Source: Candidatus Limnocylindrales bacterium (GTDB lineage Bacteria; Chloroflexota; Limnocylindria; Limnocylindrales; CSP1-4). Taken from it: a DNA stretch of 64,000 bases. Location of the stretch: contig JBMFSS010000002.1 in the NCBI GenBank assembly GCA_049967415.1, positions 87,717 to 151,716 on the forward strand, given 5' to 3'. This document shows positions 1-62,849 of this stretch, piece by piece (position 1 is the first letter of the stretch; each line of letters starts with the position of its first letter). Position numbers and translations under genes: made by a program. Below the pieces are notes generated by a model. The model was not told where the DNA came from. It saw only the letters and a list, made by a program, of their open reading frames with translations, and searched no databases.

Positions 1-1291
1 CAACCTCTGGCGATGCCGGCGTAGCCTCGGGGTGCGCGCCGCCGGGGAGGACCGCGGTCGGACTGCTCGCCAGCCGTGCCGCAAGTTCGGCCGCGATCCG
101 CGCCTCGTACTCCGCGGTATACCGGAAGGCGGCCGCCGCCAGCTGCTGTCGGGTCGGTGCACCCAGCCGCCCCTCCGCCCGCAGCTCGGCGAGGACCGCT
201 GGATAGTCCGACGGATCCGTTACGACGCCCACGCAGGCGTGATTCTTCGCGGCCGCGCGGATCAGCGTGGGGCCGCCGATGTCAATCTGCTCGACCAGCT
301 GCTCGAGCCCGGTCCCCGGCCGCGCGGCCGCCGCTGCGAACGGGTACAGGTTGACCACGACCAACTCGAAGGGATCGATTCCTTCTGCGGCCAGCTGCTC
401 GATGTGGTCCGGCCGGCGGAGATCGGCCAGCACCCCCGCCATGATCCGAGGGTGGAGCGTCTTGACCCGCCCGTCGAGCATCTCTGGGACACCCGTGACC
501 GCGGCGACGTCGGTCACCTCCAGCCCGGCCGCCCGCAGGATGCGCGCGGTGCCCTCGGTGGCGACCAGCGCAAACCCGAGCTCGGCAAGCCCCTGGGCAA
601 AGGCCTCCAGGCCAGTCCGGTCCGAGACCGAGAGCAAGGCCTGGCGTGGGCGCCCCGGCGGTGACGCCCGCCCGAGATCGAGTGCCGCCCGACCGTCAGC
701 CGTGACGGTGACCGCGCCGGCCGCCAGCAACGCGACGGCCCGCGGGAGGAGCCGGTGCTCGAGCGCCTGGAGCCGCCCGAAGAGCGACGCTTCGTCGTCT
801 CCGGGCAGAACCGCGAGCGTCTCTTGGAGGAGGATCGGGCCGCCGTCAGGCACCTCGTCGATCAGGCGGACCGTGACGCCGGTCACGCGAACCCCCGCCC
901 GGAGCGCATCGCGCACTGCTTGGGTACCGGGGAAGGCTGGCAGGAGGCTCGGATGCACCTTCAGCATGCGGCCGCGGAAGGCAGCCACCGTGGCCGGCCC
1001 AACGCTCCGCAGAAAGCCGGCCAGGGCCACGACTCGGGCGTTGGCCTCCGTCAGGGCTACGGCCACGGCCCGGTCCCACGCGTCCTCGTCGGGATGGTCT
1101 CCCGGCCGCACCACCGCGGTCGGGATCGACTGATCGCGGGCCCAATCGAGCGCCGGGCAGGGGCGATCGGCCAGGACGAGCACGACCCGCCCGCCCAACC
1201 AGCCCTCTCCTTGAGCGCGGCTAATCGCACGCAGGCTGCTGCCCCGGCCCGAGACGCAGACGGCGATGGGCACCGCGGGCCGCTCGCTCAT
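1..1291 (-). CDS. purN-purH: Phosphoribosylglycinamide formyltransferase (PurN) domain continuing in frame, with no stop, into the N-terminal (MGS-like) part of AICAR transformylase/IMP cyclohydrolase (PurH); 5'-partial at the window edge
   Basis: Minus-strand translation from the ATG at 1291..1289 reads MSERPAVPIAVCVSGRGSSLRAISRAQ...LVLADRPCPALDWARDQSIPTAVV (PurN N-terminus) and ...GRLQALEHRLLPRAVALLAAGAVTV (PurN C-terminus). It continues in the same frame as RPRQALLSVSDRTGLEAFAQGLAELGFALVATEGTARIL...IDIGGPTLIRAAAKNH, which is the PurH N-terminus with its signature motif. No in-frame stop occurs between the two domains (checked across 600-840). The ORF runs off the left edge, which is why it is missing from the ORF track. 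Confidence 0.75.
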   Translation of the reverse strand, partial: MSERPAVPIAVCVSGRGSSLRAISRAQGEGWLGGRVVLVLADRPCPALDWARDQSIPTAVVRPGDHPDEDAWDRAVAVALTEANARVVALAGFLRSVGPATVAAFRGRMLKVHPSLLPAFPGTQAVRDALRAGVRVTGVTVRLIDEVPDGGPILLQETLAVLPGDDEASLFGRLQALEHRLLPRAVALLAAGAVTVTADGRAALDLGRASPPGRPRQALLSVSDRTGLEAFAQGLAELGFALVATEGTARILRAAGLEVTDVAAVTGVPEMLDGRVKTLHPRIMAGVLADLRRPDHIEQLAAEGIDPFELVVVNLYPFAAAAARPGTGLEQLVEQIDIGGPTLIRAAAKNHACVGVVTDPSDYPAVLAELRAEGRLGAPTRQQLAAAAFRYTAEYEARIAAELAARLASSPTAVLPGGAHPEATPASPEV

Positions 1292-2598
1292 GGCGGCGCC
1301 GGGAGAAGCCACTCGAGGCGCGCCAGAATCGCCGGGACGTGGCGCAGGAAGACAGCCTCCTCGAAGCAAGCGGCCAGCGCATCGGCCGCGAGGCCGGCCG
1401 TGGCGGCATCGCCGGCCAGCACCTCGGCCAGCGGCCGGCCTTCCTCGGCTGCCCGGAGCGCGTTGCGCTGGACGATCGCATAGGCGGCCTCGCGCGAGAG
1501 GCCTGCCTGCTCCACCAACGCGAGGAGGACCCGACCCGAGGCATAGAGCCCCAGATCAGCGGCCAAGTTCGCCCGCATCCGTTCGGGGTGGACCCGGAGC
1601 CCCTCGAGCAGCGCCGTGAAGCTCGCGAGCATGTAGTCGAGCAGGATGGTGGCGTCGGGGAGGATCACCCGCTCGGCCGAGGAGTGGCTGATGTCCCGCT
1701 CATGCCAGAGCGCCTGGTTCTCAAGGGCCGCCAGGGCATAGGCCCGCAACAGGCGCGAGAGGCCCACCAGACGTTCGCTGTGGACCGGGTTGCGCTTGTG
1801 CGGCATCGCGCTCGAGCCCGCCTGCCCGGCCCGAAACGGCTCTTCGAGTTCGCCGATCTCGCTATGCGCGAGGTTGCGGATCTCGTCCGCGAAGCGTTCG
1901 ATCGAGCCCCCGGTGACAGCGAGGGCGGTGAGGAAGGCCGCGTGCCGATCGCGCTGCACGATCTGCGTACTGACCGGGTCGACCGCGAGTCCCAGGAAGG
2001 CCATCACCTCCGCCTCCAGGGTGGGATCGAGCTGGCTGTAGCTCCCGACCGGGCCCGAGAGCTTGCCGGTAGCGAGATCGGCCGCCGCGGCGCGGATCCG
2101 GGCGCGGTCCCGGTCGAGCTCGAAGGCCCAGCCGGCGAGCTTGAGGCCGAAGGTGATCGGCTCCGCGTGCACCGAATGGGTGCGCCCCAGCATGACCGTG
2201 TCGGCGTGCTCCCGGGCGCGTTGCACGACCACCCCGAGCGCGGCATCGAGGTCTGCGAGGAGCTGCTGGGCAGCCGCCTGGCACTGGAGAGCCAGGGCGG
2301 TGTCGAGCACGTCGCTGCTGGTCAGGCCCAGGTGCAGGTAGCGGCCCTCGGCGCCCACCGCCTCGGCAAGCTGGCGCACGAAGGCCACCACCTCATGGTC
2401 GGTGGTGCGCTCGAGGGTGGCGATCCGCGCGGGATCGACCCGCGCGCGGGCCGCGATCGCCTCGGCCGCCCCAGCGGGGACCTGGCCGTGGGCGGCCTGG
2501 GCCCGTACCACCGCCAGCTCGACGCGCAACATCGCTTCGACGCGCGCCTGCTCGGTCCAGATCGCGCCCATCTGGGGTCGGGTGTAGCGCGGGATCAC
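1288..2598 (-). CDS. purB: Adenylosuccinate lyase
   Basis: 436 aa. The N-terminus MIPRYTRPQMGAIWTEQAR matches the PurB start (B. subtilis MIERYSRPEMSAIW). The fumarase/aspartase-family motif GSSAMPHKRNP is present. Its stop overlaps the purN start (ATGA). Confidence 0.93.
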   Translation of the reverse strand: MIPRYTRPQMGAIWTEQARVEAMLRVELAVVRAQAAHGQVPAGAAEAIAARARVDPARIATLERTTDHEVVAFVRQLAEAVGAEGRYLHLGLTSSDVLDTALALQCQAAAQQLLADLDAALGVVVQRAREHADTVMLGRTHSVHAEPITFGLKLAGWAFELDRDRARIRAAAADLATGKLSGPVGSYSQLDPTLEAEVMAFLGLAVDPVSTQIVQRDRHAAFLTALAVTGGSIERFADEIRNLAHSEIGELEEPFRAGQAGSSAMPHKRNPVHSERLVGLSRLLRAYALAALENQALWHERDISHSSAERVILPDATILLDYMLASFTALLEGLRVHPERMRANLAADLGLYASGRVLLALVEQAGLSREAAYAIVQRNALRAAEEGRPLAEVLAGDAATAGLAADALAACFEEAVFLRHVPAILARLEWLLPAPP

Positions 2599-3998
2599 GC
2601 GAGCGGCGCTCCGTCACGGCCCGCTTTCGGCTCCGGCCCCGCGGCCGAGCCGGTGGCGGACGCCCCACTCGCCCACCACGCGCCAGGGAGCGTCGGCCCG
2701 TGGAGCGCGGGCCGGCGCGGCCGCTTGCCCCGAACGATCGTGGCGGTCCGATCCGCCCCCACGCTCACGATCGCGATCGGGGCGCCCGCCAGTTCCTCCA
2801 GTGCCTCGACATAGCGGCGGGCTGCGGCGGGCAACGCCTCGGCTCCACGCACCGCGCCCAGATCCTCGGTCCAGCCCTCAAAGGTCTCGTAGACCGGCTC
2901 GGCCCGCGCGAGGCGCTCGGCGGAAGCCGGCAGCTCCCGAACGAGCTGTCCATCGATCCGATACGCAACACAGACGCGCACCTGCGGGAGCCCCGAGAGG
3001 ATGTCGAGTTTGTTGAGCATGATGGCGCTGACGCTGTTGAGGGCCACCGCGCGGCGCAGCGGGACCGCGTCGAACCAGCCGCAGCGACGCCGACGCCCGG
3101 TGGTGGTCCCGAACTCGTGCCCCTGCTCCAGCAGGTAGCGGCCCGTGGCGTCGTTGAGCTCGGTGGGGAACGGCCCCGATCCAACCCGCGTCGCGTAGGC
3201 CTTCATCACCCCCACCACCTCATCGACCTGGAGCGGCCCGACACCACCCCCGGTGCAGGCCCCCCCGGCAATCGGGTTCGAGCTGGTGACGTACGGATAG
3301 GTGCCGTGGTCCAGATCGAGCAACGTGCCCTGGGCACCCTCCAGCAGGACGTGGCGCCCTGCCGCGAGGGCCGACTGGACCAGCCCGGTGGTATCCGCGA
3401 TGTGGGGACGGAGGCGCGCGCCCCAGTCGGTCGCGCGCTCGATCAGCGCCTCGAGCTCCACGGGGGCCAGGCCGTAGGTCTGCATCAGCACCGCGTTCTT
3501 CTCGGGCAGGACGCGCTCGAGGTGCGCCCGCAGCACGTCCGGCTCGAGCAGGTCCGCCATCCGGAGCCCGATGCGCCAGGCCCGGTCGGCGTAGGCGGGG
3601 CCGATGCCGCGACGAGTGGTCCCGATCTCCTCCCCCGCCAGGCGTGCCTCCATCGCCCCGTCGAGTGCCACGTGGTAGGGCAGGATCACGTGGGCCGCCT
3701 CGCTGACCCGGACCCGACCGGTCGCGACCCCGCGCGACTCGAGCATCGCGATCTCATCGAGGAGCGTCTGCGGGTTCACCACCACGCCGCCGCCGATGAT
3801 CGGGGTGACGTGCGGGTAGAGGACCCCGCTCGGAACCAGGTGCAGCGCGAAAACCGCTTCACCGAGCACGACCGTGTGCCCGGCGTTGTCGCCGCCCTGG
3901 TATCGGACCACCAAGTCGACCGACTCGGCGAGCAGATCGGTGGCCTTCCCCTTCCCCTCGTCGCCCCACTGGAGGCCGACCACGATCGTCACCGGCAT
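2595..3998 (-). CDS. purA: Adenylosuccinate synthetase
   Basis: The internal start MPVTIVVGLQWGDEGKGK (P-loop of PurA) is preceded by GAGGAGG. GGDNAGHTV and GIGPAYADR motifs are present. Its stop overlaps the purB GTG start (GTGA). The 82 codons upstream in the long ORF are an unsupported extension. Confidence 0.92.
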   Translation of the reverse strand: MPVTIVVGLQWGDEGKGKATDLLAESVDLVVRYQGGDNAGHTVVLGEAVFALHLVPSGVLYPHVTPIIGGGVVVNPQTLLDEIAMLESRGVATGRVRVSEAAHVILPYHVALDGAMEARLAGEEIGTTRRGIGPAYADRAWRIGLRMADLLEPDVLRAHLERVLPEKNAVLMQTYGLAPVELEALIERATDWGARLRPHIADTTGLVQSALAAGRHVLLEGAQGTLLDLDHGTYPYVTSSNPIAGGACTGGGVGPLQVDEVVGVMKAYATRVGSGPFPTELNDATGRYLLEQGHEFGTTTGRRRRCGWFDAVPLRRAVALNSVSAIMLNKLDILSGLPQVRVCVAYRIDGQLVRELPASAERLARAEPVYETFEGWTEDLGAVRGAEALPAAARRYVEALEELAGAPIAIVSVGADRTATIVRGKRPRRPALHGPTLPGAWWASGASATGSAAGPEPKAGRDGAPLA

Positions 3999-4074: not shown

Positions 4075-4767
4075 TCAGGGCCGGTGGCGGGCCCGGAGGA
4101 CCGCCAGCACGCGGCGGGGCTCAAGGCCCCGTTCGGCACAAAGGACGAGCGCATGGTATAGGAGGTCAGCGGTCTCGGCCGCAAGTGCCGCTTTGGTCTG
4201 CTCGCGATCCCCGGCGTTTTGGCTGCGGGCGGCCTCCGCGTCATCGCGGGCGGCCAGCAGCACCTCGGTTGCTTCCTCGGTCAGCTTGCGCGCCGCAGCG
4301 TCCACCCCCGCGTCAAGGAGCCGGGCCGTGTACGAACCCGCGGGCCGGTCGGCCGCCCGCTGCCCAATCGTCGCCCAGAGCGTCTCAAGCCAGGCAAATC
4401 CCTGCGGGTCCCAAGGCTGGGGCGGCAGCCGGTCAAAACAGCTGCGGGCGCCGGTATGGCAGGTGGGCCCGCTGGCCTCAGCCGTCACCAGGATGGCATC
4501 GGCGTCGCAGTCGAGCGCAAGCCCGCGCACGTTCAGTACGTTGCCGCTCGTCTCGCCCTTGCACCAGAGTCGCCCCCGGCTCCGCGAGTGGAAGTGTGCA
4601 AGGCCGGTCTCCAGCGTTGCCGCCAGCGCTTCGGCGTCCATGTACGCCAGCATCAGCACCGCCCCGTCCCCCGCGTCCCGGACCACGGCGGGAACCAGCC
4701 CGTCCGGTCCCCAACGGACCCGCGCAGGGTCGATGGCCGGGGCGATGGGCTCATCCGCGCGCATCAT
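4075..4767 (-). CDS. hisIE: Bifunctional phosphoribosyl-AMP cyclohydrolase / phosphoribosyl-ATP pyrophosphatase
   Basis: From MMRADEPI...: the HisI part has LAYMDAEAL...[16 protein letters not shown] and a CxxC...C zinc site. The C-terminal HisE (MazG-like) part has [12 protein letters not shown]...[10 protein letters not shown]. Its ATG overlaps the hisF stop (ATGA). Confidence 0.9.
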
Positions 4768-5597
4768 GCGGCCCGGGCCATCCGCACCGGGATGCCGGCT
4801 GCCGCCATGGCGTGCTTGACGGTGGCGATTCCGTGCAGGTCCCGGTGAAAGATGGATGCAGCCAGGACCGCGTCTGCCCCTCCTTCGAGGATTGCAGCCA
4901 CCAGGTCGTCCGGGCTGCCGGCTCCCCCTGACGCCACGACCGGGACCGAGACCGCCGCTGTCACCGCGCGCAGCAACGGCAGATCGTAGCCCCCGCGCGT
5001 CCCGTCCCGGTCGATGGACGTCAGGAGGATCTCGCCTGCGCCACGCGCGGCCGCCTCGGCAGCCCAGGCGACCACGTCCCGACCGGTCCCGGTTCGTCCG
5101 CCATGAACGACCACCTCCCAGTGCTGGCCTCGCGCCAGTGGCGCCGTTGCGGCGCCGCCGCGAGTCCCGCCGTCCAGGGGCGGGCCTCCGGGGTCGAGAC
5201 GCCGGGCGTCGATGGAGACCACCACGCATTGGCGGCCGAACCGTCGGGTGCAGCGATCGATCAGCGCCGGATCACCCACCGCTGCAGTGTTGATGGCGAC
5301 ACGATCGGCACCCGCCCGCAGAACCGCGCGCATGTCATCCACCGAGCGGACCCCGCCGCCGACGGTGAGGGGCACAAAAGCCCGTTTGGCCGTCCGCTCC
5401 ACCGCGTCGAGCAGGGTGCTCCGTCCTTCCACTGCGGCCGTGATGTCGAGCAAGACAATTTCGTCCGCGCCGGCCGCCGCATAGCGCGCCGCGAGCTCGG
5501 CCGGATCGCCTTCGTCCTGCAGTTCGACAAAGCGGGTTCCCTTGACAACCCGACCATCCCGCACGTCCAGACACGGGATCACCCGGCGGAGCAGCAT
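4764..5597 (-). CDS. hisF: Imidazole glycerol phosphate synthase cyclase subunit
   Basis: 277 aa; [20 protein letters not shown]...[11 protein letters not shown]...GGGVRS...ASGGAG, the classic HisF (beta/alpha)8 sequence. Confidence 0.95.
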
Positions 5598-6331
5598 CAG
5601 GGGCTCTCCTTCCGCAGGCCGCGAACGTCCCCCGCCGCGACCTCCACCAACCCGGAACGCGCGACCAGCTGCACGACGCCGGCAAGCAGACGCACTCCAT
5701 CCGGCCCGGATTTCTCCGGATGAAACTGCAGGCCCAGCAGACGCCCCTCAGCGACCACGCTTGCGAAGCGCCCGCCATGCTCTGTCTCGGCAACCACCAC
5801 CTGGGGGTCGGCAGGGACCGGCGCGAAGGAGTGCACGAAGTACATTGGCGCGTGGTCCGGCAGGCCCGCCAGCACCGGATGCCGCCGGACCGGGTCGACC
5901 GTGTTCCAGCCGATGTGGGGCAGGCGGGGTGCGTCGGGTAACCGGCGTGTCTCGCCGGCAATCCAGCCCAGCCCCCACGACCCATCTTCCTCCGACCGTC
6001 CAAAGAGCAGCTGCATCCCAAGGCAGATCCCCAGATACCAGGCCCCGTCAGAAACCGCGGCCTCCAGCGCCGCGTCCAGGCGGGCGCGCCGCAGGCGCCG
6101 GATCGCGGGCCCCTGGGCGCCCACCCCCGGCATCACCACCAGATCGGGCCGTCCCAGTTCCCTGCCGTTCCGCGCGACTCGGACGGTGGCCCCCACCAGC
6201 CGCAACGCCTGGCCGATACTGAGCAGGTTGCCTGCCCCGTAGTCGACGAGCGTGATCGACACCGTCTCGCCGGACTCGGCCACGGATCCGCCCGCACGGC
6301 TGTCGGCAAAGGGAGGCGGCTCAGAGCGCAT
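5597..6331 (-). CDS. hisH: Imidazole glycerol phosphate synthase glutaminase subunit
   Basis: Class-I GATase: [11 protein letters not shown]...PGVGAQG...GICLGMQLL (catalytic Cys)...HSF. The chosen start MRSEPPPF (ATG 6331) overlaps the hisB 3' end by 11 nt. The exact start is uncertain, and the long N-terminal extension in the ORF track is not supported. Confidence 0.85.
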
Positions 6332-6992
6332 CGCTTCCCTGCCCGGGCGCCTCGCCCAGCCGCCACTCCTCGCCCAGCCGCCCCTTCGTGGAGGCCACTC
6401 CCACCCTCCTCGGGTCCCGCGCCAGGGCCCCACGAAGGGCCCGCGCGAGGGCCTTGAAGGCCGCCTCGGCCACGTGGTGGTCGTTGGCCCCCGCCGCCTC
6501 CAGGTGGAGGGTGATTGCCGCCTCCCGCGCAAATGACTCGAGCGCGTGTGGGATCAGCTGGGTGGAGAGCGCCCCCACCCGCTCGCCGCGGAAAGCCACC
6601 CGCACCACGGCATAGGGCCGGCCGGAGCAGTCAACGGCCGCTTCCGCCAGCGCCTCATCCATTGGAACGCGCGCCTCGCCAAAGCGCTCGATCCCGACTC
6701 CATCACCGACGGCCTCTCGGACGGCGCGACCGAGGGTCAGTGCAACGTCCTCCACGCTGTGGTGCTCATCGATCTCCAGGTCGCCGGTGGCTGTGATCGC
6801 GAGATCGAAAAGCGCATGGTGCGCAAGGGCCGTCAGGAGGTGGTCGTAGAAGCCGACGCCGGTGGCGATCTGCGCCATCCCGGTTCCGTCGAGGTCCAGA
6901 ACGACCCGGACGTCGGTCTCGCGGGTGGTGCGACGCACCTCCGCACGGCGCCCGCGAGGACCGGCCCCGGGGGTTGCCGAAGCCGGGTTCAC
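6321..6992 (-). CDS. hisB: Imidazoleglycerol-phosphate dehydratase
   Basis: 223 aa; RRAEVRRTTRETDVRVVLDLDG...HH..E..H motifs of IGPD. The start codon overlaps the hisC stop. Confidence 0.9.
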   Translation of the reverse strand: MNPASATPGAGPRGRRAEVRRTTRETDVRVVLDLDGTGMAQIATGVGFYDHLLTALAHHALFDLAITATGDLEIDEHHSVEDVALTLGRAVREAVGDGVGIERFGEARVPMDEALAEAAVDCSGRPYAVVRVAFRGERVGALSTQLIPHALESFAREAAITLHLEAAGANDHHVAEAAFKALARALRGALARDPRRVGVASTKGRLGEEWRLGEAPGQGSDAL

Positions 6993-8167
6993 CGCCCTGC
7001 CTCCCGCGCACGCTCCCGCCGCGCTTGCCGGCCAGACCCGGCGCGGGGGGCGGGCTTCTCTCCGAGCGCCCTGACCAGCAGATCGTCCTGGTCGGGCGTT
7101 CGCACCGTCAGGCGCAGGAACCCACGGAGCGGCCCGCCTGCAAATCGGCGGGGCACGAGGCCGCTTCGGAGCAGCCGTTCGGCGGCCGCGTCCGCCCCCG
7201 CCGCGCCTCCTGCGTCGAGCAGGAGAAAGTTCGTCACGCTGTCGGGGACCCCCCAGCCGGCGGTCGCCAACGCGTCCCGGAGCCGCTGCCGTTCAGCCCT
7301 GATGGCAGCCACGTTGGCAGGCGCAAAGTTCGGATCGCGTAGTGCGCGGGTGGCGATCCACGCCGAGAGCACGCTCACGCTCCCCGGCGGCCGCACGCGT
7401 GCGAGGCGTGCGGCGTGCGGTGGATCAGCCAGCGCATATCCGACCCGGATCCCGGCCAGGCCGTGTGCCTTGGACAGCGTCCGCACCACCACGAGCCGCG
7501 GGAAAGCGGCCACCAGGCCAATCATGCTCTGGCCAGCGAAGTCACGATAGGCTTCGTCGACGACCACCGCGGGCCCGCCCTCCGGCAGCGCGGCGAGCCG
7601 CTGCAAGAGCCCCGGCAGCGCGTCCGGCCGCTCGGTGGTCCCGGTCGGATTGTTCGGGTCGCAGAGCCAGACGAGCGCCGCGCCCGCGGCGGCCCGCACC
7701 AACGCGTCGTGGTCCAGGCCAAACTCCGCCTCGGCCGGCCCGCGCGCCACCTCCACCACTGCCGCCCCGCGCTGGCGCGAGAGGATCGCGTACATGGCGT
7801 AGGTGGGTGGAGCGACCACGGCACGGCTCCCGGGCCTCAGCCAGGCCTTGGCCACGAGATCCAAGATCTCGTCAGCCCCCGCGCCCACCACGATGGCGCT
7901 GGGCTCGACCGCCTCCCGTGCAGCGATCGCTTCGGTCAGCTCGGCGTAGGTTGCATCGGGATACTCGTTGATGCGCTCGATCGGCGCAGCGCCCACCGCA
8001 CCGGGCAGCCAGGGCGGCCTCCGAGGCGAGGTGTTGGTGTCAAAACGGATCACCTGCTCGGGGTGCAGCTGGTAGGCCGCGGCAATCTGGGCGTCGCTCT
8101 CCTCCCATTGATATCCGGCAGCCTGATGTCTCCCATCGACGCTGGCGGCGACGCGGCTGGCACTCAC
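6989..8167 (-). CDS. hisC: Histidinol-phosphate aminotransferase
   Basis: 392 aa class-II aminotransferase with a PLP lysine context (LVVVRTLSKAHGLAGIRVGYA). It sits between hisD and hisB with 4-nt overlaps at both ends. Confidence 0.88.
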   Translation of the reverse strand: MSASRVAASVDGRHQAAGYQWEESDAQIAAAYQLHPEQVIRFDTNTSPRRPPWLPGAVGAAPIERINEYPDATYAELTEAIAAREAVEPSAIVVGAGADEILDLVAKAWLRPGSRAVVAPPTYAMYAILSRQRGAAVVEVARGPAEAEFGLDHDALVRAAAGAALVWLCDPNNPTGTTERPDALPGLLQRLAALPEGGPAVVVDEAYRDFAGQSMIGLVAAFPRLVVVRTLSKAHGLAGIRVGYALADPPHAARLARVRPPGSVSVLSAWIATRALRDPNFAPANVAAIRAERQRLRDALATAGWGVPDSVTNFLLLDAGGAAGADAAAERLLRSGLVPRRFAGGPLRGFLRLTVRTPDQDDLLVRALGEKPAPRAGSGRQARRERAREAGR

Positions 8168-9609
8168 GGTCGCGCGCTCCCGGCTCGCTGCCCTTTACTC
8201 TCGCCGGCACCCGCCCCACCGTCAGGCGACTGGGTCTCGAAGCGAATCTCGACAGCCCGACGGTGGGCCGGCAGTCCTTCGGCTTCCGCCACGGCCCCCA
8301 CCGCTGACGCGATTGACGCGAGACCGGCAGGGTCCAAAACCTGCGCCTGCATCCAGTGACCGAAGTCCGTGACCCCCAGCGGGCCCCGGACCCTGGCCAG
8401 TCGTCCGGTGGGCAGCACGTGATTGGACCCAGTGGCATAGTCACCGGCGGACTCGGGGGCCCAGGGGCCCAGGAAAACGCTTCCGGCGTGGTGAATCCGC
8501 GGGAGCAGCGCCAGGGCATCGCCGCAGGCCAGCGAGAGATGTTCGGGCGCATACTCGTTGACGAACGCGATCGCCTCGTCAATCCCGGCGGCCAGCACGA
8601 TCAGCCCGGAGGAGCGAAGCGAGGCGGCGAGAAGGCCGATGCGGCGCTGCTTGGGCAGCTGACGGTCGATCTCGAGCTGGACTCGCTCGGCAAGCTCGGT
8701 GTCGATGGTGACCAGCACGGCTGCTGAGTCAGGTCCGTGCTCGGCTTGACTCAGCAGGTCCGCGGCGACGTGCGCCGGGTTCGCCGTCTCATCCGCGAGC
8801 ACCAGGACTTCCGACGGACCGGCAGGCATGTCGATCCCGACGTCTCCGGTCACCTCGAGCTTGGCCGCCGTCACCCAGGCGTTCCCAGGACCCACAATCA
8901 GGTCGACCGGCACAACGGTTTCGGTCCCATAGGCCAGCGCCGCAATGGCCTGGGCTCCGCCGATCGCGTAGAACTCCTCGATCCCCAGCAGGCCGGCGGC
9001 ACCGAGCAGAACCGGCGAGATCCGCCCGTCACGCCCGGCAGGGCTTGCCACCGCGATCTGCCGGACACCCGCCAGGCGGGCCGGGATCACCCCCATCACC
9101 AGCGAGCTCGGGTACGCTGCCTCACCACCCGGCACGTAGATCCCGGCCCGGTCCACCGGGCGCCAGACCCGACCGACGCGGATCCCTGGCGCAACATCCA
9201 CCCACTCCTCGGGCTGGGGCACCTGCGCCCGATGGAACGTCTCGATATTCCGGATCATCAGCCGCAGCGCCTCCCGGAGCCCGGGGGCCAGACGCTCAGC
9301 CGCGCGGCACAGCACTTCGGGAGGAACGCGCAGCGGCGCCGGCGTCGCGGGCGGCGCGCCAGTCGGGATCCCCTCACTCCAGGCTCCGCCGAGGCTCGCA
9401 CCCAGCTCCCTCAACGCGGCGTCCTTTTCCGCTCGAACGCGCTCGACGACGGCGCGCGCCGGGACCCGCACCTCGGCCCCAGTCCCGGGTGATCGGGCAG
9501 TCAAGGCGCGGCGCTCGGCCGTGCTGATCGTGTCCAGGAAGACGCGCCGCAGCTGAACGTTTGCGACAGGACCGGTGCCATCCGGCCGATTTGCCTCGAT
9601 CCCGTTCAT
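8164..9609 (-). CDS. hisD: Histidinol dehydrogenase
   Basis: 481 aa; [25 protein letters not shown] and [25 protein letters not shown] motifs of HisD. Confidence 0.93.
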
Positions 9610-10454
9610 GGAAGGAGCAGCTCGACCGGGAGGACCAGGATCCCACTCGCACCGGCGGTACGCAGGCGGCCAAGGAGCCCCCAGACCTCGTCCGCACCCA
9701 CTACCGCATGGACCGCCACCATGCCCGGGCGGGCCAGGGGGACCACGCTGGGCGACCCCAGCCCCGGCAGCAGCGTTTCAATCTCCGGGAGAGCCCCGAT
9801 CGGTGCGTTCATCATCAAGTAACGACGCTCCCGGCCGTCAACCACCGCCCGCACCATGGTGACGACCTCATTGGCTGGACCGTCCACACCGGGGTTGGCC
9901 ACCAGGATCGCCTCGCTGGTGAGGAGCGTCCCAATCGAGCGGAGCCCGTTGACGAGCAGGGTCGAGCCAGTCGAAACCAGATCCACAATGGCGTCGGCCA
10001 CGCCCATCCGCGGCGCTACCTCTACCGCGCCGCTCAGGGGGACCAGGGTCACATCGATGCCGCGCTCGAGGAAGAAGCGGGCCGCATACGCCGGGTGCGA
10101 GGTGGCAATGCGACATCCAGCCAGATCCTCGAGTGTCTGGCCCGGCGCATCGGTGGGCACCGCGGCATCCAGCCGACAGCGCCCATAGTGAAGCGCCGCA
10201 CGCGTCTCCAGCGGGCGCCCGGACTCGGCCAGCAGGTTGGTCCCGGTGATGCCGATGTCGGCGACGCCGTCACCCACGAACTCCACCACGTCCTCGGTCC
10301 GGATGAACAGGATGTCCAACGGGAAATTGGCGCAATGACTGACCAGGGAGCGCTCGCGGGCGTCGAAGACGAGCCCCGCATCGTGGAGCAGCGCCAGAGT
10401 CGGTTCCAGCAGCCGCCCTTTGTTGGGGACCGCCAGGCGCAGCCGTGTTGTCAT
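9606..10454 (-). CDS. hisG: ATP phosphoribosyltransferase, long form
   Basis: Internal start MTTRLRLAVPNKGRL (cat at 10452-10454). 283 aa including a C-terminal regulatory domain. The upstream part of the track ORF is an Arg-rich artefact. Confidence 0.9.
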   Translation of the reverse strand: MTTRLRLAVPNKGRLLEPTLALLHDAGLVFDARERSLVSHCANFPLDILFIRTEDVVEFVGDGVADIGITGTNLLAESGRPLETRAALHYGRCRLDAAVPTDAPGQTLEDLAGCRIATSHPAYAARFFLERGIDVTLVPLSGAVEVAPRMGVADAIVDLVSTGSTLLVNGLRSIGTLLTSEAILVANPGVDGPANEVVTMVRAVVDGRERRYLMMNAPIGALPEIETLLPGLGSPSVVPLARPGMVAVHAVVGADEVWGLLGRLRTAGASGILVLPVELLLP

Positions 10455-10858
10455 GATTGAGCGGCCTCGACGCCGACGGCGGCGCTGACCCCGCCTCCCG
10501 CGACTCCAGGGGATCGGCCGATTGGCCCGCCACCGATCAGGCTCGGAAGCGGCTCCCCGCGGCGCGCGGCCCGCCGCTCGAGCGCCTGTCGATAGCCGCC
10601 CATGCCATGGTGCAGCCACCCGGCAATCCGGGTCACCGTGGCGGTGCTTGCACCCGAGCGCCGCGCTACCTCACCGTAGTGGAGCCCCTCTGCGAGCAAC
10701 CGGACTACCTGCCAGCGCTGCGCCAAATCGTGCAACTCTCCCAGCGTGCACAGATCGCGGAGGAAGCGCGCAGCCTCGTCCCGATCACGCAAATCCACGA
10801 TCGCATCGAGGAGTTCGTCGGTCTCTTGCGTCTGCCACGTCTCGCGCGCTTCGATCAC
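10451..10858 (-). CDS. TrpR-like YerC/YecD-family putative DNA-binding protein, translationally coupled upstream of hisG
   Basis: The core ...ETDELLDAIVDLRDRDEAARFLRDLCTLGELHDLAQRWQVVRLLAEGLHYGEVARRSGASTATVTRIAGWLHHGMGGYRQA matches the YerC/YecD (TrpR-related) family signature (TLxELxxxAQRxxVxxLLxxGxxYxExxxxTGxSTATIxR). The probable GTG start (VIEARETW...) is preceded by GGGAGAC. The stop overlaps the hisG ATG. The start coordinate is uncertain by a few nt. Confidence 0.7.
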   Translation of the reverse strand: MIEARETWQTQETDELLDAIVDLRDRDEAARFLRDLCTLGELHDLAQRWQVVRLLAEGLHYGEVARRSGASTATVTRIAGWLHHGMGGYRQALERRAARRGEPLPSLIGGGPIGRSPGVAGGGVSAAVGVEAAQS

Positions 10859-10924
10859 GCTGTCTCCCGTTCTTTTGCGCGGTCTCCTATGGGCCAGCCG
10901 ACGCCGCGGCTGAGCGGCGACCCG

Positions 10925-10962
10925 TCCTACGATGCTGCTATAGTAGCATAGTAACATGCTAG
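10925..10962. promoter_or_regulatory. AT-rich dyad-symmetric element in the divergent yerC-like/hisG - hisA promoter region (candidate operator)
   Basis: The sequence gctgcTATAGTAGCATAGTAACATGCTAG contains overlapping inverted repeats TGCTA-N3-TAGCA and TAGCAT-N6-ATGCTA with a CTAG core. It is the only AT-rich patch in about 1 kb of ~70% GC DNA, and it lies between divergent genes. Confidence 0.45.
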
Positions 10963-11759
10963 ATGAAGCAGATGACAGGATCCGGGGGACGTTCCCATCC
11001 AACACGGCTAGGCCACCGTTTCTCCTGATCCCGGCCATCGACTTGCTCGGGGGGCAGGTCGTTCGGCTCAGACATGGTGATCGCAGTCAAGTCACCGTCT
11101 ACCCCGTGGCGCCGTCTGAAGCGGTGTGGCAGTGGGCTGCGGCGGGCGCCGACCTGGTCCACGCGGTGGATCTCGACGGGGCCTTTGCCGGACGGGTCCA
11201 CCAGTGGATGGCGCTGCAGAGCGTCGCGGCAACTGCCTTGGCGGCCGGGATCGAGTGCGAGGTCGCCGGGGGGGTCCGCGATGAAGCGACGGCCGCGCGC
11301 CTTCTTGCGATGGGCGCGGCCCGGGTGGTGCTCGGAACTGCCATGTTGCTCGATCCGGCCCTGGCGCGACGTCTGGTCGAGCGGCATGGCAGCGCGCGGA
11401 TCGTTGCGGCGCTTGATGTTCGCGCTGGGATCGCCGTCGGCCAAGGATGGGCCGACGGCGCCCCGGGCCGGGAAGTGGATCTCGCCCTGGCCACGCTCGT
11501 CAGCGCCGGAGTGACCCAGGTCGAGGTGACCGCTATCGCGCGTGACGGCACCCTGAGCGGGCCTGACCTTGCGCTCCTCAGGCGAGTGCGGCAGGCGGCC
11601 CCGGACGTTACGCTGATCGCCTCGGGAGGCATCCGACAACCCGAGGAGATCAGCGCCCTCCGTGACCTGGGTTGCAACGGGGCCATCCTGGGACGGGCCC
11701 TGTATGAGGGAGCACTGGGCCTTGCTGACGCGCGCGCGGCGCTGGCCGGAACCTCGTAG
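10956..11759 (+). CDS. hisA: 1-(5-phosphoribosyl)-5-[(5-phosphoribosylamino)methylideneamino]imidazole-4-carboxamide isomerase
   Basis: LLIPAIDLLGGQVVRL...DLDGAF...IASGGI motifs of HisA. It is transcribed divergently from the rest of the his operon. The true start may be downstream of the first ATG, because the N-terminal ~20 aa are atypical. Confidence 0.88.
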   Translation: MLDEADDRIRGTFPSNTARPPFLLIPAIDLLGGQVVRLRHGDRSQVTVYPVAPSEAVWQWAAAGADLVHAVDLDGAFAGRVHQWMALQSVAATALAAGIECEVAGGVRDEATAARLLAMGAARVVLGTAMLLDPALARRLVERHGSARIVAALDVRAGIAVGQGWADGAPGREVDLALATLVSAGVTQVEVTAIARDGTLSGPDLALLRRVRQAAPDVTLIASGGIRQPEEISALRDLGCNGAILGRALYEGALGLADARAALAGTS

Positions 11760-11802
11760 CGAATCAAGCAGCCGGCCCGGGCTGCCGCCGGCTCGGTCCC
11801 CG

Positions 11803-13149
11803 TCACTCGCTCGAAATGCGCTGGCGCCGCAGCAGATCCGAAGGCCGTGGTCGCGCTCGAACCAGGGTGGCCTTGCCCGCGCTGACCGCGACCTCGGCCG
11901 GCCCGGTGTGTGAGAGGAACCAGGGCATCGATTGGGTGAAACCGTAGGCCCCGGCGTCGAGGAACGCGACAAGGTCCCCCGGCTGGGGGCGGGGGAACGC
12001 CCGTGCCTGCCCGAGAATGTCGAGCGCGGTGCAGAGTGGTCCGGTCATGAGGACCGCCACGGGCTCCCGAGCAGCCGCACCGTCGTGCGCGACCAGTTGC
12101 ATCCGGTGCATCCGGCCAGGGAGCGCAGGCGCCAGGAAATGGTTGATGCCGCCGTCGAGGATCGTGATGCAGCGCCCCTCGCGGTCCTTCACGTCCACAA
12201 CCCGAGCGAGATACGCGCCGATAGGGCCGCCCAAGTACCGACCGGGCTCAATCAGGATCCGCAGCTCCTGCGCTGCCGGGTCCCCCGCTGCACCGTGCAG
12301 GACGTCCCGCAGGCCACCGGCGAAGGAGCCCAGGTCGAGCGGCGCCTCGCCTTCCCGGTACGGGATCCCGAGCCCGCCGCCGACGTCGGCGAGCTGGAGC
12401 CGAAAGCCGGCTGCCGCGGCCAGCCGCCGCCCAGCCGCCACCGACCAAGCCGCATGGGCCGCCAGACGCACTGGGTCTCGAACCGCTCCCACCGCGAACA
12501 CGTGAACACCGAGCGGGACGAGCGCTGGCGACCGGACGGCATGCCGTGCTGCGGCCACGGCATCGTCCCAGGTCATCCCGAAATGCTCTGTCGGCCCCTG
12601 GTGATCTGGGCCGCCGGCGTCCGGGGGAGCGGCCAGGCGAAAGAGGAGTCCCACCGGCTGTTGCCCCGAGGACGCAGTGCGCTCGACCCGCCGGACCTCG
12701 CCAGGCGAATCAACGGCGATCGCACGCACCCCGGCCCGCACGGCCTGCCGGAGCAGCGCCTGGCTCTTGCCAGGCCCGGTGACGACGATCGCTCCGGGGG
12801 GTACCCCAGCGCGCAGCGCTGCGGCGAGCTCGCCTGCCGACGACACGTCCGCACCGACGCCGGTCCGTGCGAGCCGGGCAATGACGGCAAGCGACGGGTT
12901 CGCCTTGACCGCGTAGGCGATCTCCACCCGGTCCGGCAGAGCGGCGCGCAGGGCGCCGGCCCGGCGCTCGAGAGCGTCGAGGTCGTAGACGTAGAGTGGC
13001 GTCCCGAATTGCCGGGCAAGCGAGCGCGGGTCGAGGCCCGCCAAGCGACCGGCGCGCCAAATCTCGTCCTCCTCCTCCGCCGGTCCCCGGTCGCCCTCAA
13101 CGCGCCCTGCGGCGAGAGCAGCGGCGGCCGGCGCCGACCGGGGCGTCAC
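11803..13149 (-). CDS. lysA: Diaminopimelate decarboxylase
   Basis: 448 aa fold-III PLP decarboxylase: FGTPLYVYDLDALERRA...YAVKANP...GGGLGIPY...EPGRYL. Confidence 0.88.
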   Translation of the reverse strand: MTPRSAPAAAALAAGRVEGDRGPAEEEDEIWRAGRLAGLDPRSLARQFGTPLYVYDLDALERRAGALRAALPDRVEIAYAVKANPSLAVIARLARTGVGADVSSAGELAAALRAGVPPGAIVVTGPGKSQALLRQAVRAGVRAIAVDSPGEVRRVERTASSGQQPVGLLFRLAAPPDAGGPDHQGPTEHFGMTWDDAVAAARHAVRSPALVPLGVHVFAVGAVRDPVRLAAHAAWSVAAGRRLAAAAGFRLQLADVGGGLGIPYREGEAPLDLGSFAGGLRDVLHGAAGDPAAQELRILIEPGRYLGGPIGAYLARVVDVKDREGRCITILDGGINHFLAPALPGRMHRMQLVAHDGAAAREPVAVLMTGPLCTALDILGQARAFPRPQPGDLVAFLDAGAYGFTQSMPWFLSHTGPAEVAVSAGKATLVRARPRPSDLLRRQRISSE

Positions 13150-14000
13150 CGGAGCGCCTCCTCGATCGCCGTACGCGCGGTCGTGGACGCGTCTCGCTGC
13201 TTGACGATGGCCGCGCAGTGGAGGCCGATCCCGTGCTCCGCCGCGAACGCGCCAGCTGCGGGACGGATGGCCGGCACCACTACCGCACCCCGGGGGACCG
13301 TCAGCGGGTTCGCCGGGGTCCCCTGCAGGAGGCGGCTCTGTGGCAGGTCATACAGCCGGCTGGTCCCGGTGAGAATCGTCCCCGCCGCCAGCACTGCCCC
13401 TCGGCCGACAAGGACGCCGTCGAAGAGCCCGCACTGCGCCCCGACAAAGACGTCGTCCTCGATGATCACGGGGCGCGCGTTGGGCGGCTCGAGGACCCCG
13501 CCGATCTGTACCCCTGCCGCGAGGTGCACCCGTGCACCGACCTGCGCGCAGGACCCTACCAGGACGTGCGAGTCGACCATGGCTCCCTCCCCGATCCAGG
13601 CGCCCACGTTGATGAAGGAGGGCGGCATAACCACGACCCCAGGCCCGAGGTAGGAACCGGCGCGCACGCTTGTCCCTCCCGGCACGATCCGCCAAGGGCC
13701 GCCCGCGAGCCGTTTGGTTGGCAGACGCGTTCGGTCCTGGAACTCCAGCAAGCCCCCGAGGCGCCATCCGGTGGTTGCCGAGTCCCGGAAAAGCGTCAGC
13801 AACTCCTCGCGCAGCGCGACGTCGACCCGCCAACCACCGGGAGCTGCCGGGTCCGGCCATGCTGCGCGGCGGCGGCCCGCGTCGAGGTCATCGAGAAGCT
13901 GCTGCCCAGCACCGGCGTGCGGCGCCGGCAGTGCGGGACCCCTTGCAGCGGGCCGCACCGCCGCCGACGCCAAGCGGTGCCGAGGCGCCCGGCCAGTCAC
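13146..14000 (-). CDS. dapD: 2,3,4,5-tetrahydropyridine-2,6-dicarboxylate N-acyl(succinyl)transferase
   Basis: Left-handed beta-helix hexapeptide repeats (GPGVVVMPPSFINVGAWIGEGAMVDSHVLVGSCAQVGARVHLAAGVQIGG) and a WRIVPGGTSVR motif typical of actinobacterial-type DapD. It lies in a dap/lys operon with 4-nt overlaps. Confidence 0.78.
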   Translation of the reverse strand: MTGRAPRHRLASAAVRPAARGPALPAPHAGAGQQLLDDLDAGRRRAAWPDPAAPGGWRVDVALREELLTLFRDSATTGWRLGGLLEFQDRTRLPTKRLAGGPWRIVPGGTSVRAGSYLGPGVVVMPPSFINVGAWIGEGAMVDSHVLVGSCAQVGARVHLAAGVQIGGVLEPPNARPVIIEDDVFVGAQCGLFDGVLVGRGAVLAAGTILTGTSRLYDLPQSRLLQGTPANPLTVPRGAVVVPAIRPAAGAFAAEHGIGLHCAAIVKQRDASTTARTAIEEALR

Positions 14001-14989
14001 GCGACCCCTCCGCCCGCCCCGGCCCCGGCAACGCCGGGACTAGCCGGCTCGATCAGGCCGCCCTCCTGCAGCAGCACCCCCAGGCGGCCCCGAGCGGGCT
14101 CCTCCAGAGGGAGCAACGGGAGCCGCAGACGATCCTCGATCCAGCCCATCTGCGCCAGTGCTGACTTGACCGGGACGGGGTTCGGACCGCCCCGAAAGTT
14201 GGCCCGGAAGAGCGGCAGCCACCGGTCGTGCAGCTGGCGTGCTCGTGCCCAATCCCCGGCCCGCGCAGCGGCACACAGCGCGGCCATCTCGGCCGGGATC
14301 TCGTTGGATGCCACGCTGATCACGCCGTCGCCACCCATCGCCAGGACCGCCAGGGTCCAGGCGTCGTCGCCCGCCATCACCGCAAAGCCCGCCGGTCGGT
14401 CGCGGATGATGGTCGCGATCTGCTCCAGATTCCCCGACGCCTCCTTGACGGCCACGATCCGGGGGTGCTCGGCCAGCCGCAGGGTGGTCTCGGCTTCGAC
14501 GTTCGAACCGGTGCGTGATGGCACGTTGTAGATGACGATCGGGAGGCCGCCTTCGTCCGCGACGGCCGTGAAGTGCGCGGCGAGCATCCGCTGGTCGGGC
14601 CGGTTGTAGTAAGGGGCCACTATCAGGGCTGCATCGGCCCCCAACTCGGCCGCGCGGCGCGTGGCGCGGATGGTGGCCGCCGTGTCGTTGGTCCCGGTCC
14701 CCGCGATCACGGTTGCGTGGCGGTGCGCGCCTTCCACCGCGGCAGTGATCACGCGCTCGCGTTCGGCGGGCGCCAGGGTGGGTGATTCGCCCGTGGTGCC
14801 ACAGGGAACCAGGCCGTCGATCCCGAGGCGGACTTGCCACTCGATCAGGCGGCGCAGCGCCGACTCGGCGAGGCGCCCTTCAGCATCGAACGGCGTGACG
14901 AGGGCCGTGAACGCGCCGGCGATCCGCGGCCTCGGGCGGGGCGCGGTCGGCTGATCGGGGGTGTTCGTCGCGTGTTGCAGCGTGGACAT
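13997..14989 (-). CDS. dapA: 4-hydroxy-tetrahydrodipicolinate synthase
   Basis: TALVTPF...GLVPCGTTGESPTL...YNRP...AVKEASG (Schiff-base Lys) motifs of DapA. Confidence 0.9.
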   Translation of the reverse strand: MSTLQHATNTPDQPTAPRPRPRIAGAFTALVTPFDAEGRLAESALRRLIEWQVRLGIDGLVPCGTTGESPTLAPAERERVITAAVEGAHRHATVIAGTGTNDTAATIRATRRAAELGADAALIVAPYYNRPDQRMLAAHFTAVADEGGLPIVIYNVPSRTGSNVEAETTLRLAEHPRIVAVKEASGNLEQIATIIRDRPAGFAVMAGDDAWTLAVLAMGGDGVISVASNEIPAEMAALCAAARAGDWARARQLHDRWLPLFRANFRGGPNPVPVKSALAQMGWIEDRLRLPLLPLEEPARGRLGVLLQEGGLIEPASPGVAGAGAGGGVA

Positions 14990-15046
14990 CGGGTTGCTCC
15001 TCTTGTGCTTGCGTCGGCGTGGATGGGTGTCTGCTCCCAGTCGCCC

Positions 15047-15862
15047 TCAGGGCAGGGCAGGAGCAGCGGTTGCCACGGCGCGGTTGGCGGTGCTGGCCAA
15101 CGGCGCCGTCAGGCGGGCTGCGGCGATCAGCTCGTCAACTACCTCGTCGAACGAATGGATCCCCGCCGCTCGCGGGGCCGCGAGCAGCCATTCGGCGGCC
15201 GCGATCGCCCCCGCCGCGTAGGCCGATCGGTCGCGCGCGGTCAATCGCAGCTCGAACGTCTCGCCCGGCGCGTCGAACCCAACCAGGTGCATCCCGGGAG
15301 CCCACCCCGCGCGCACAGCGACCACTTCGAGCTCGTCGGTTCCCGGCGGGCCACCCCGCCCGGGCTCGGCCCGGCGACGCTTGACGGGATGCGCGGCAAG
15401 GATCCGGCGTGCGAGCTCGAGTGCCGTCCCAGAGGGCCGATCGGCTTTCCCCCTCCGGTGCCATTCGACGACGTAGGGGTCGTAGTCGGGAAGAAACCCG
15501 AGCATTTGCGTGGCGCCCTCAGCGAGGCGAGCCAGGACGTTGATGCCGGGGCTGAAGTTGCTGGCCGCCACCGCGCTGGCGCCATGCTGGTCGAGCAGGG
15601 CGGTCAACTCGGAGGGGGTGACCGTCCAGGCGGTGGTGCCAATGACGAAGCGCCGGCATCCGCCCGCCAGGGCCGAGGCGACGTTGGGCAGGACCGCGGC
15701 ACCACGGGAGAACTCAAAAGCCACCTCGACCGTGGCGAAGGCGCCGGGTGGATGCGAAGTCCGCGGCCGTCCAAGGACGCCGCATACCTCGGCCCCGCGC
15801 CCAGCGAGGGCATCCGCCACGGCCCTGCCCATCGGCCCATCCCCCAGTACGATCGCGCGCAT
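15047..15862 (-). CDS. dapB: 4-hydroxy-tetrahydrodipicolinate reductase
   Basis: The start MRAIVLGDGPMGRAV (Rossmann GxxGxxG) is preceded by GAGGAGGA. EWHRRGKADRPSGTA is the DapB signature (E.HH..K.D.PSGTA). Confidence 0.88.
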   Translation of the reverse strand: MRAIVLGDGPMGRAVADALAGRGAEVCGVLGRPRTSHPPGAFATVEVAFEFSRGAAVLPNVASALAGGCRRFVIGTTAWTVTPSELTALLDQHGASAVAASNFSPGINVLARLAEGATQMLGFLPDYDPYVVEWHRRGKADRPSGTALELARRILAAHPVKRRRAEPGRGGPPGTDELEVVAVRAGWAPGMHLVGFDAPGETFELRLTARDRSAYAAGAIAAAEWLLAAPRAAGIHSFDEVVDELIAAARLTAPLASTANRAVATAAPALP

Positions 15863-15919
15863 TTCGCCGTCCTCCTCGCGGAGGGGCCTGGAGCGGAGGT
15901 CCGATGGTCCGGACACACG

Positions 15920-37069: not shown

Positions 37070-37504
37070 TCAGGCCGTCGGCCGGCCGCCCTTGGTCTCC
37101 CAGAAGATGTCTCCGAACTCCTTGACGAGCGCCAGTAGATCGGCTGCCGCCTGGGCGTCCACCGTCTGCTTGCACTTGCTGGCCTGCTTCATGATCCGCC
37201 AGACGAGGTCGTGCAGCTGCGGGTACTTCGCCACGTGCTCGGGCTTGAAGTAGTCGCCCCAGATCACCCGCACCTCGTGCTTGACGGACTCGGCGTACTT
37301 CTCCTTGACTTCGACCATGCGGATGAACTGGTTGCGCTGGGTGGGATCGTCGCCGAGGTTCTGGTTCATCAGCTCGACCATGCGAGCCACTGACCGGGCC
37401 CCGTATTCGGCGATCGACGGATCGTAGATCCCGCACGGGATGTCACAGTGAGCGTGGAGCGCGTGGCGCGGCGCGATGGCGGTCTCGATTCGTTCGCGAA
37501 GCAC
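37070..37504 (-). CDS. sodN: Nickel-containing superoxide dismutase precursor
   Basis: A pro-peptide (MLRERIETAIAPRHALHA) is followed by the Ni-hook HCDIPCGIYDP. Confidence 0.92.
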   Translation of the reverse strand: MLRERIETAIAPRHALHAHCDIPCGIYDPSIAEYGARSVARMVELMNQNLGDDPTQRNQFIRMVEVKEKYAESVKHEVRVIWGDYFKPEHVAKYPQLHDLVWRIMKQASKCKQTVDAQAAADLLALVKEFGDIFWETKGGRPTA

Positions 37505-58598: not shown

Positions 58599-58687
58599 AC
58601 AGGCCCCGGGCCGCTGCGCCCCGAGATCCCGTGGAGGGCCGGCCGGCCGGCCCTCCACGCAGCGTCACGGAACAGGAGGTATGTCGA

Positions 58688-59683: not shown

Positions 59684-59776
59684 GGCAGGCTCGCAAGCGG
59701 CGCCTGCACCGGCGACCCCACGCGCTGCCGCGTGGCCTGAGCCGTGCCGCGGAGCTGACTCGGGCAAATTGCCCGG

Positions 59777-60262: not shown

Positions 60263-60449
60263 AGCCTCCCTGGGACGCTCTACTCGTCCGCTATCGAGTC
60301 TCCGGGCCGGAACGGCCGCCGGCCAGTGCCCTCTGTCCCTGATTGGGGGGCGCGATGCCACGTGGCGATCTCTCCTCTCCCGGTGGGCGCGCAGCTCGGC
60401 GCAGGGACCACTCGCCGGCGCCCTGCGGCCGGGCTGGTAGGCTGATCCC

Positions 60450-62834: not shown

Positions 62835-62849
62835 AGGAGGCAATCCGCC

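Follow-up and report, generated by a model that had tools for sequence, protein, structure and literature searches.

Does the left end of a 64,000-nucleotide (nt) stretch of a Candidatus Limnocylindrales genome (the window, meaning hereafter the whole stretch) encode two folate-dependent enzymes of purine synthesis, glycinamide ribonucleotide (GAR) transformylase (PurN) and the bifunctional PurH, as one protein? An earlier inspection of the DNA letters and of the open reading frames (ORFs), hereafter the sequence-only reading, had proposed an in-frame PurN-PurH fusion at positions 1–1291. Herein, these positions are interpreted, with a probability of about 0.8, as the 5′ part of a genuine single gene, purNH, the last of a purA-purB-purNH operon. 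The gene would give rise to one polypeptide of ~735 amino acids (aa) that combines GAR transformylase (PurN) with the inosine monophosphate (IMP) cyclohydrolase and the 5-aminoimidazole-4-carboxamide ribonucleotide (AICAR) transformylase of PurH.

One reading frame across PurN and PurH

Translation of positions 1–1291 yielded a minus-strand frame that stays open for 430 codons, from an ATG at 1291–1289 to the left window edge, with no stop. The remaining two minus-strand frames are stop-rich or nonsense. Full-length relatives of the product measure ~725–750 aa, and the visible purNH ORF (1–1291, minus strand), identified by translation, domain searches and homologues, represents the 5′ 60% of the gene, which exits at the left window edge. 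Searches against Pfam placed Formyl_trans_N (PF00551) at aa 9–186 (E = 4.6e-38), MGS (PF02142) at aa 228–342 and AICARFT_IMPCHas (PF01808) at aa 347–405. The NCBIfam PurN model TIGR00639 matched aa 9–195 over model positions 3–190 of 192, with 164.6 bits against a cutoff of 150.1, and the match to the PurH model TIGR00355 begins at aa 216 with model position 1 and is continuous over model positions 1–196. The PurH models TIGR00355 and NF002049 reached 235–247 bits against cutoffs of 528 and 402, with model positions 1–196 of ~510 lying inside the window. The profile alignment recommended in the sequence-only reading therefore gives a complete PurN domain (aa 9–195; 707–1267, minus strand) and a PurH that starts at its first model position. 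The IMP cyclohydrolase (MGS-like) domain of PurH occupies aa 216–342 (266–646, minus strand), as delimited by Pfam, NCBIfam and alignment to human ATIC. It is followed by the start of AICARFT_IMPCHas (aa 347–405) and then by a variable inter-domain linker (aa 406–430), which together span 2–253 on the minus strand according to Pfam and a family profile.

The two enzymes meet in a junction of 20 residues (aa 196–215, TVTADGRAALDLGRASPPGRP; 647–706, minus strand) composed of the PurN C-terminal tail and the PurH N-terminal tail. The earlier statement that neither a stop nor a plausible ATG or GTG separates PurN from PurH was confirmed by codon reading: the junction holds no stop, ATG or GTG in frame, and the only in-frame start-type codons over aa 185–230 are the TTG of Leu188 (728–730) and the TTG of Leu219 (635–637). 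Among homologues, the junction aligns without length change and shares the motif ...D..rA.a.LPRPRRALLSVSDK. The G+C fractions at the first, second and third codon positions (GC1/GC2/GC3) are 0.80/0.54/0.85 in the purNH ORF and remain unchanged across the junction, so that no sign of a frame switch is seen. An open frame alone is nevertheless weak evidence for fusion, because stop triplets are so scarce at the 72% G+C of the window (1.1% of triplets) that a run of 20 codons without a stop would arise by chance in 80% of cases. The fusion was judged real because a complete PurN domain lacks a terminator in its own frame and because the fusion is conserved in relatives.

The homologue search covered a collection of 5.8 billion proteins, and the figures given here refer to the best 120 homologues (NCBI, ENA, JGI and Logan assemblies). 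PF00551, PF02142 and PF01808 occur together in all 120, at 57–75% identity to the window protein, and 110 of them are at least 700 aa long. For the Chloroflexota-type fused relatives, the identity of 57–75% extends over 407 aa, the nearest standing at 75%; contig scans found the best relatives at 74% in genome contigs and 61% in metagenome contigs. Furthermore, when 72 full-length fused proteins were combined into a profile, it aligned aa 7–413 as one continuous domain with 634.9 bits. At the DNA level, a single uninterrupted purNH ORF was read in 12 genome loci, namely L001–L010 from Chloroflexota metagenome-assembled genomes (MAGs), which include Limnocylindrales and CSP1-4 MAGs, together with L013 and L017 (Elusimicrobiota). 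Such an ORF is also present in two loci from metagenomes, L081 and L082. The proposal of an in-frame fusion is thereby upheld, with one ORF present in more than 100 independent assemblies.

These data bear directly on the possibility of an assembly or sequencing artefact, in which separate purN and purH genes would have been falsely joined by a lost stop or an indel. The sequence does come from a MAG, a related long-read MAG locus contains a frameshift inside the gene, and the chance expectation of stop-free codons given above is high. However, an uninterrupted junction of the same length and motif recurs in more than 100 independent assemblies at 57–75% identity and in 14 loci at the DNA level, the codon-position GC pattern is unbroken, and the PurN tail, linker and PurH head align residue for residue to the family profile. 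A stop or frameshift at the junction, which the sequence-only reading had singled out as evidence against a fusion, was found neither in the window nor in its relatives. An artefact is accordingly considered extremely improbable. The frameshifted locus, L027 (CAVSMY010000012.1, 6001–7195), belongs to a Chloroflexia long-read MAG; its PurN and PurH parts lie in different frames with a ~20-residue overlap inside PurN, which resembles a fused gene disrupted by a frameshift introduced during assembly.

A survey of 160 loci placed the fusion among its unfused counterparts. Fourteen loci are fused; in 35, purN immediately precedes purH as a separate gene; and 98 have purH without an adjacent purN. 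In 23 of the 35 separate-but-adjacent loci, purN and purH share the same frame, with a stop codon and a short spacer between them, so that one point mutation would fuse them. These same-frame loci include L011, L012, L014–L016, L018–L024 and L031 and represent Actinomycetota, Bacillota, Gemmatimonadota and other groups. The fused gene most likely originated when a purN lying next to purH, a gene order that is widespread, lost its stop codon. Stop loss is the simplest origin because the junction is no longer than the PurN tail plus the PurH head of normal unfused proteins. The fusion is fixed in the Limnocylindrales clade, and other lineages have acquired it by separate origin or by spread. Clusters formed at 50% identity include at least 25 representatives that match both enzymes in one stretch, at 33–60% identity. 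The full-length ones measure 692–819 aa, several others are truncated, and linker lengths vary greatly; these varied linkers point to repeated or ancient fusion. The premise of the sequence-only reading that the two enzymes are encoded separately in most bacteria holds insofar as separate purN and purH are usual, but the fusion is neither rare nor new, being the standard form in Limnocylindria-type Chloroflexota and recurring in further phyla. The window gene is thus a new, divergent member of an existing and essentially undescribed trifunctional PurN-PurH family.

A single ORF could still yield two products if PurH were also, or mainly, translated from an internal start at TTG 635–637 (minus strand) or nearby. 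This codon, the candidate internal start named in the sequence-only reading, encodes Leu219 of the ALLSVSD motif, the very point at which the conserved ALLSVSDK segment of stand-alone PurH begins, and annotators sometimes choose an internal start, as a Dolosigranulum cluster illustrates. Codon comparison among fused loci argues otherwise: TTG is a synonymous Leu codon that, of the 12 fused loci compared, just L004 and L009 have, the other ten having CTC, CTG or CTT. PurH starting independently at this TTG in homologues, the second observation that had been named as contrary to a fusion, was not found, the codon being CTC or CTG in most relatives. In addition, none of the 12 fused loci has a conserved ATG, GTG or well-spaced Shine-Dalgarno-like (GGAGG) motif upstream of the PurH part, and the linker is conserved as protein and predicted to be ordered. 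Moreover, ribosomes must make the fusion product regardless, as no stop follows PurN. Two products from the ORF are therefore rated as quite unlikely. In the Dolosigranulum cluster (90% identity; P0153/P0278), a 724-aa fused call stands alongside a 532-aa PurH (WP_347298701.1) called by the Prokaryotic Genome Annotation Pipeline (PGAP), a discrepancy that reflects either a strain-variable stop codon or annotators choosing an internal start in a read-through ORF.

Catalytic residues and divergence of the Limnocylindrales copy

In the fused family, the PurN residues N111, H113 and D149, the IMPCH residues K277, Y316, D337 and K349, the AICARFT residues K493 and H494 (VKHANPCG) and the RYGENPHQ motif are invariant. 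All three activities are expected in the family because these catalytic residues do not vary. Human ATIC K66, Y104, D125 and K137, which we take to be the catalytic residues of IMP cyclohydrolase and whose positions were checked on PDB 1p4r, are all matched in the window protein (GRVKTLHP, NLYPF, QIDIGG and AAAKNH in the alignment to 1p4r_A). Its phosphate-loop positions differ from human ATIC at K14 (R) and G35 (E). The IMPCH part reads SVSDR for SVSDK and ATEGT for STGGT. In the PurN domain, the SLLP folate-binding motif is kept as HPSLLP at aa 113–118, and the residues equivalent to E. coli H108 and D144 are retained as His113 and Asp149. No indication of damage to purNH was found anywhere inside the window. 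A destroyed RYGxNPHQ motif was considered, as HMMER pairs LPGGAHPEATPA of the window protein with human LRYGMNPHQTPA, and was rejected: the family profile ends at aa 413, and the tail is variable linker. The last 17 residues belong to this inter-domain linker, the family profile does not align them to RYGENPHQ, and the motif is absent from the other frames.

Several observations weigh against a functional single-chain enzyme. The catalytic triad of PurN consists of Asn106, His108 and Asp144 in E. coli numbering (PMC4786211, PMC3261824). In the window copy this triad is incomplete: His and Asp are present, and an AAG codon (959–961, minus strand) places Lys111 at the position of Asn106, as established by alignment to an E. 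coli PurN reference verified against PDB 1c2t. Asn occupies this position in 173 of the 173 other PurN domains examined, and Lys was seen only in the window copy (MLKVHPSLLP). In addition, Ser stands at Asn13 (1235–1237) and Arg at His137 (866–868), both on the minus strand and in E. coli numbering. The GAR transformylase activity of the window protein is therefore not assured. Furthermore, only 430 codons are visible, as purNH continues past the window edge, with its stop codon and the core of the AICAR transformylase lying outside. In the protein collection, no 100% match to the purNH product was found (75% at best for the fused query), and the PurH half alone, used as a query, likewise gave no 100% match and returned only short fragments. 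Of eight other proteins encoded on the contig, six have exact matches there (MGC8633301, 304, 330, 337, 345 and 355). In the deposited annotation, purNH may thus have been flagged as a pseudogene, for example owing to a defect in the unseen ~300 codons, or its entry may have been held back. Finally, we infer single-chain translation, all three activities and a selective advantage from the sequence, and internal initiation is possible.

The most pointed alternative arising from these observations is that this copy of the gene is degenerating or encodes an inactive enzyme, at least as regards its PurN module, with GAR formylation being performed elsewhere, for instance by PurT. The three substitutions and the missing deposited protein favour this view, as does the comparison of strictly invariant columns, where PurNH deviates at six of 61 and the neighbouring PurB only conservatively, at three of 127. 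However, all 430 codons are open with a normal GC3 of 0.85, and His108, Asp144, HPSLLP and the four IMPCH catalytic residues are intact. When columns with at least 95% conservation are considered, PurB deviates about as often as PurNH (12/209 vs 10/136), and a relative-rate comparison with sisters showed both proteins on a long branch, by ~6.5 identity points for PurB and ~4.5 for PurNH. Likewise, ATDGT and SVSDR loop variants occur in an intact fused protein (P0170), and no purT or second purN was found among the 40 ORFs scanned in the 64 kb, so that no backup is visible. Relaxed selection specific to purNH found no support, as the PurB control and the relative rates indicate a general long branch. 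Altogether, the lineage appears divergent overall, specific decay of purNH lacks support, and Asn106Lys remains unexplained; a decaying or dead gene is considered unlikely, and a genuine purNH gene remains the preferred interpretation.

Predicted structure, possible role and operon

Insights into the architecture of the fused protein were obtained from an AlphaFold2 model of a 734-aa homologue (P0001), which reached a pLDDT of 92.4 and a pTM of 0.75, with a junction pLDDT above 90. The junction is predicted to fold into a β-hairpin plus a short helix instead of a flexible tether. The N-terminal 200 aa of the model superpose on PurN structures with TM scores of 0.86–0.91, and the C-terminal 520 aa superpose on Mycobacterium tuberculosis PurH (3zzm) with target-normalised TM scores of 0.83–0.86. 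No PDB chain spans both enzymes; the chains cover either aa 9–202 or aa 216–734 of P0001. PurH/ATIC is an obligate homodimer. Because PurH works in this form, two PurN modules per PurH dimer would be expected, one on each IMPCH domain, held by a short, ordered connector.

The advantage of such an arrangement would lie in strict 1:1 expression and co-localisation of the two transformylases of the pathway that consume 10-formyltetrahydrofolate (10-formyl-THF). The sequence-only reading had suggested that a fusion would physically couple steps 3 and 9/10 of the pathway. This idea is tenable for the shared cofactor (10-formyl-THF/THF) and for the expression level; it fails for the intermediates, whose channelling is impossible because the two steps are not consecutive. 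Any kinetic benefit would thus have to come from shared cofactor supply or from assembly. A more far-reaching and improbable scenario is that the fusion acts as a minimal bacterial "purinosome", which would share or hand over folate or recruit a common formyl-THF supplier and so gain a kinetic edge over unfused enzymes. The Asn106Lys PurN might, in that scenario, be a non-catalytic folate-binding or scaffolding domain.

In its genomic context, purNH is the distal gene of a putative purA-purB-purNH operon with 4-nt start/stop overlaps. The ATG of purNH (1291–1289) overlaps the TGA of purB (1290–1288) in an ATGA (1288–1291, minus strand), which suggests translational coupling of purB and purNH. 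The product of purB (adenylosuccinate lyase, 436 aa; 1288–2598, minus strand) matches MGC8633301.1, a protein of a Candidatus Limnocylindrales MAG (Chloroflexota, class Candidatus Limnocylindria), at 100% identity. The stop of purA (adenylosuccinate synthetase; 2595–3998, minus strand) overlaps the GTG start of purB by 4 nt (GTGA, 2595–2598). The ATG at 3998 is the likely start of purA itself, since in its longest ORF (549 aa) the Pfam match sets in only at residue 87. Positions 4764–15916, which lie upstream of the pur genes, form a densely packed block for amino-acid biosynthesis with hisF, a hisH-like GATase, a hisC-type aminotransferase, hisD, hisG (with a C-terminal regulatory domain) and, on the opposite strand, hisA, in addition to lysA, a hexapeptide-repeat transferase (possibly dapD), dapA and dapB. 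These surroundings are an ordinary housekeeping biosynthesis neighbourhood. No second purN, purH or purT was detected among the 40 window ORFs scanned with Pfam, a set that leaves out five ORFs at the right end.

Several other features of the window were recorded. A second folate-related fusion lies at 41790–43814 (minus strand) and encodes 674 aa, with a homocysteine S-methyltransferase domain (PF02574, aa 28–303) and a methylenetetrahydrofolate reductase domain (PF02219, aa 370–636). A nickel superoxide dismutase is encoded at 37070–37504. Towards the right end, a HypC/HybG/HupF hydrogenase maturation chaperone (62850–63188; MGC8633355.1) is found near a weak CobW/HypB-like match (57270–58598), which suggests a hyp cluster among the genes of 57270–64000. 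Two plus-strand ORFs have no Pfam match: a 491-aa ORF at 21800–23275 with a GC3 of 0.91 and unusually low GC1/GC2 of 0.63/0.44, and an ORF at 30530–31189 with a GC3 of 0.94 and an odd GC1 of 0.53 and GC2 of 0.71, which may not be a real gene. ARAGORN reported a 102-nt "tRNA-Arg(acg)" at 4925–5026 (minus strand), inside the hisF coding region. This call is probably a false positive, as an Rfam scan of the window detected no RNA family.

Comparison with known systems

The fusion provides a natural "Rosetta-stone" link between two folate-dependent purine steps and supports the idea of their physical proximity. Older co-purification work stands behind the association of the folate-requiring purine steps. 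Such a physical association is an old idea in the purinosome literature (reviewed in PMC10912719), and a bacterial PurN-PurH fusion is unmentioned in the interactome papers and reviews examined. In the literature searched, the names purNH, PurN-PurH, purHN and PurH-PurN had no true occurrence in this sense, the halobacterial PurN-PurH1 was the only described fusion of these enzymes, and a search for Asn106 mutagenesis turned up only unrelated enzymes. The discovery itself is modest, because public databases already contain many proteins of this architecture and an analogous archaeal fusion has been published. Its practical value is twofold. The fused protein offers a ready-made, apparently rigid trifunctional construct for structural and kinetic study. 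Furthermore, it reveals a weakness of current annotation: "bifunctional PurH" is the only name given to hundreds of proteins of ~735 aa, and purN may be wrongly reported missing in pathway reconstructions of Limnocylindria and other lineages. For instance, the NCBI nr entries MDW8137796.1 (718 aa) and MCP9316560.1 (711 aa, on 81 contigs) are named "bifunctional ... PurH".

The closest counterparts are the fusions of Limnocylindria-type Chloroflexota, such as P0001 (734 aa), P0002 (752 aa; JAJYNJ010000093) and the CSP1-4 locus L004. They have the same domain order (PurN-IMPCH-AICARFT), junction length and junction motif as the window protein and were deposited as [quoted passage not shown]. The window copy differs from them by its long branch and by having Lys, Ser and Arg at the positions of Asn106, Asn13 and His137, respectively. 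In addition, its gene directly follows purA-purB, whereas no purB was found within 6 kb of the fused gene in L001–L010.

Adjacent but unfused purN and purH of Microbacterium, Bacillota, Acidimicrobiales and Methylomirabilota/Rokubacteria share gene order and catalytic motifs with the window. Both sides of the window junction have homologues in the PurH head (RRALLSVSDK) and the PurN tail of these proteins, and in the closest unfused relatives the two genes are ~23–50 nt apart. In contrast to the window, these loci have a stop codon, and usually also a start codon with its own ribosome-binding site, between the genes, which gives two polypeptides.

A PurN-PurH1 fusion, encoded in a cluster with purB, has been described in Halobacteria (Brown et al. 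2011, Biol Direct 6:63, PMC3261824). The gene is also written purH1N, and the IMP cyclohydrolase step is assigned to PurO (PMC3261824). Like the window protein, the halobacterial fusion unites both tetrahydrofolate-dependent purine transformylases in one polypeptide. However, it joins PurN to the AICAR transformylase domain only, without IMPCH, whereas the window protein contains the whole bifunctional PurH attached through its IMPCH end. With the MGS/IMPCH domain directly after PurN, the window protein does not have the halobacterial-type architecture. The halobacterial fusion is an independent event in another domain of life and represents an analogue, not a member of the same family. In eukaryotes, PurN-type and PurH-type domains are likewise found in multi-domain proteins, namely the trifunctional GART (GARS-AIRS-GARTfase) and ATIC. 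In animals, however, the PurN domain is joined to PurD and PurM and not to PurH, and ATIC stands alone.

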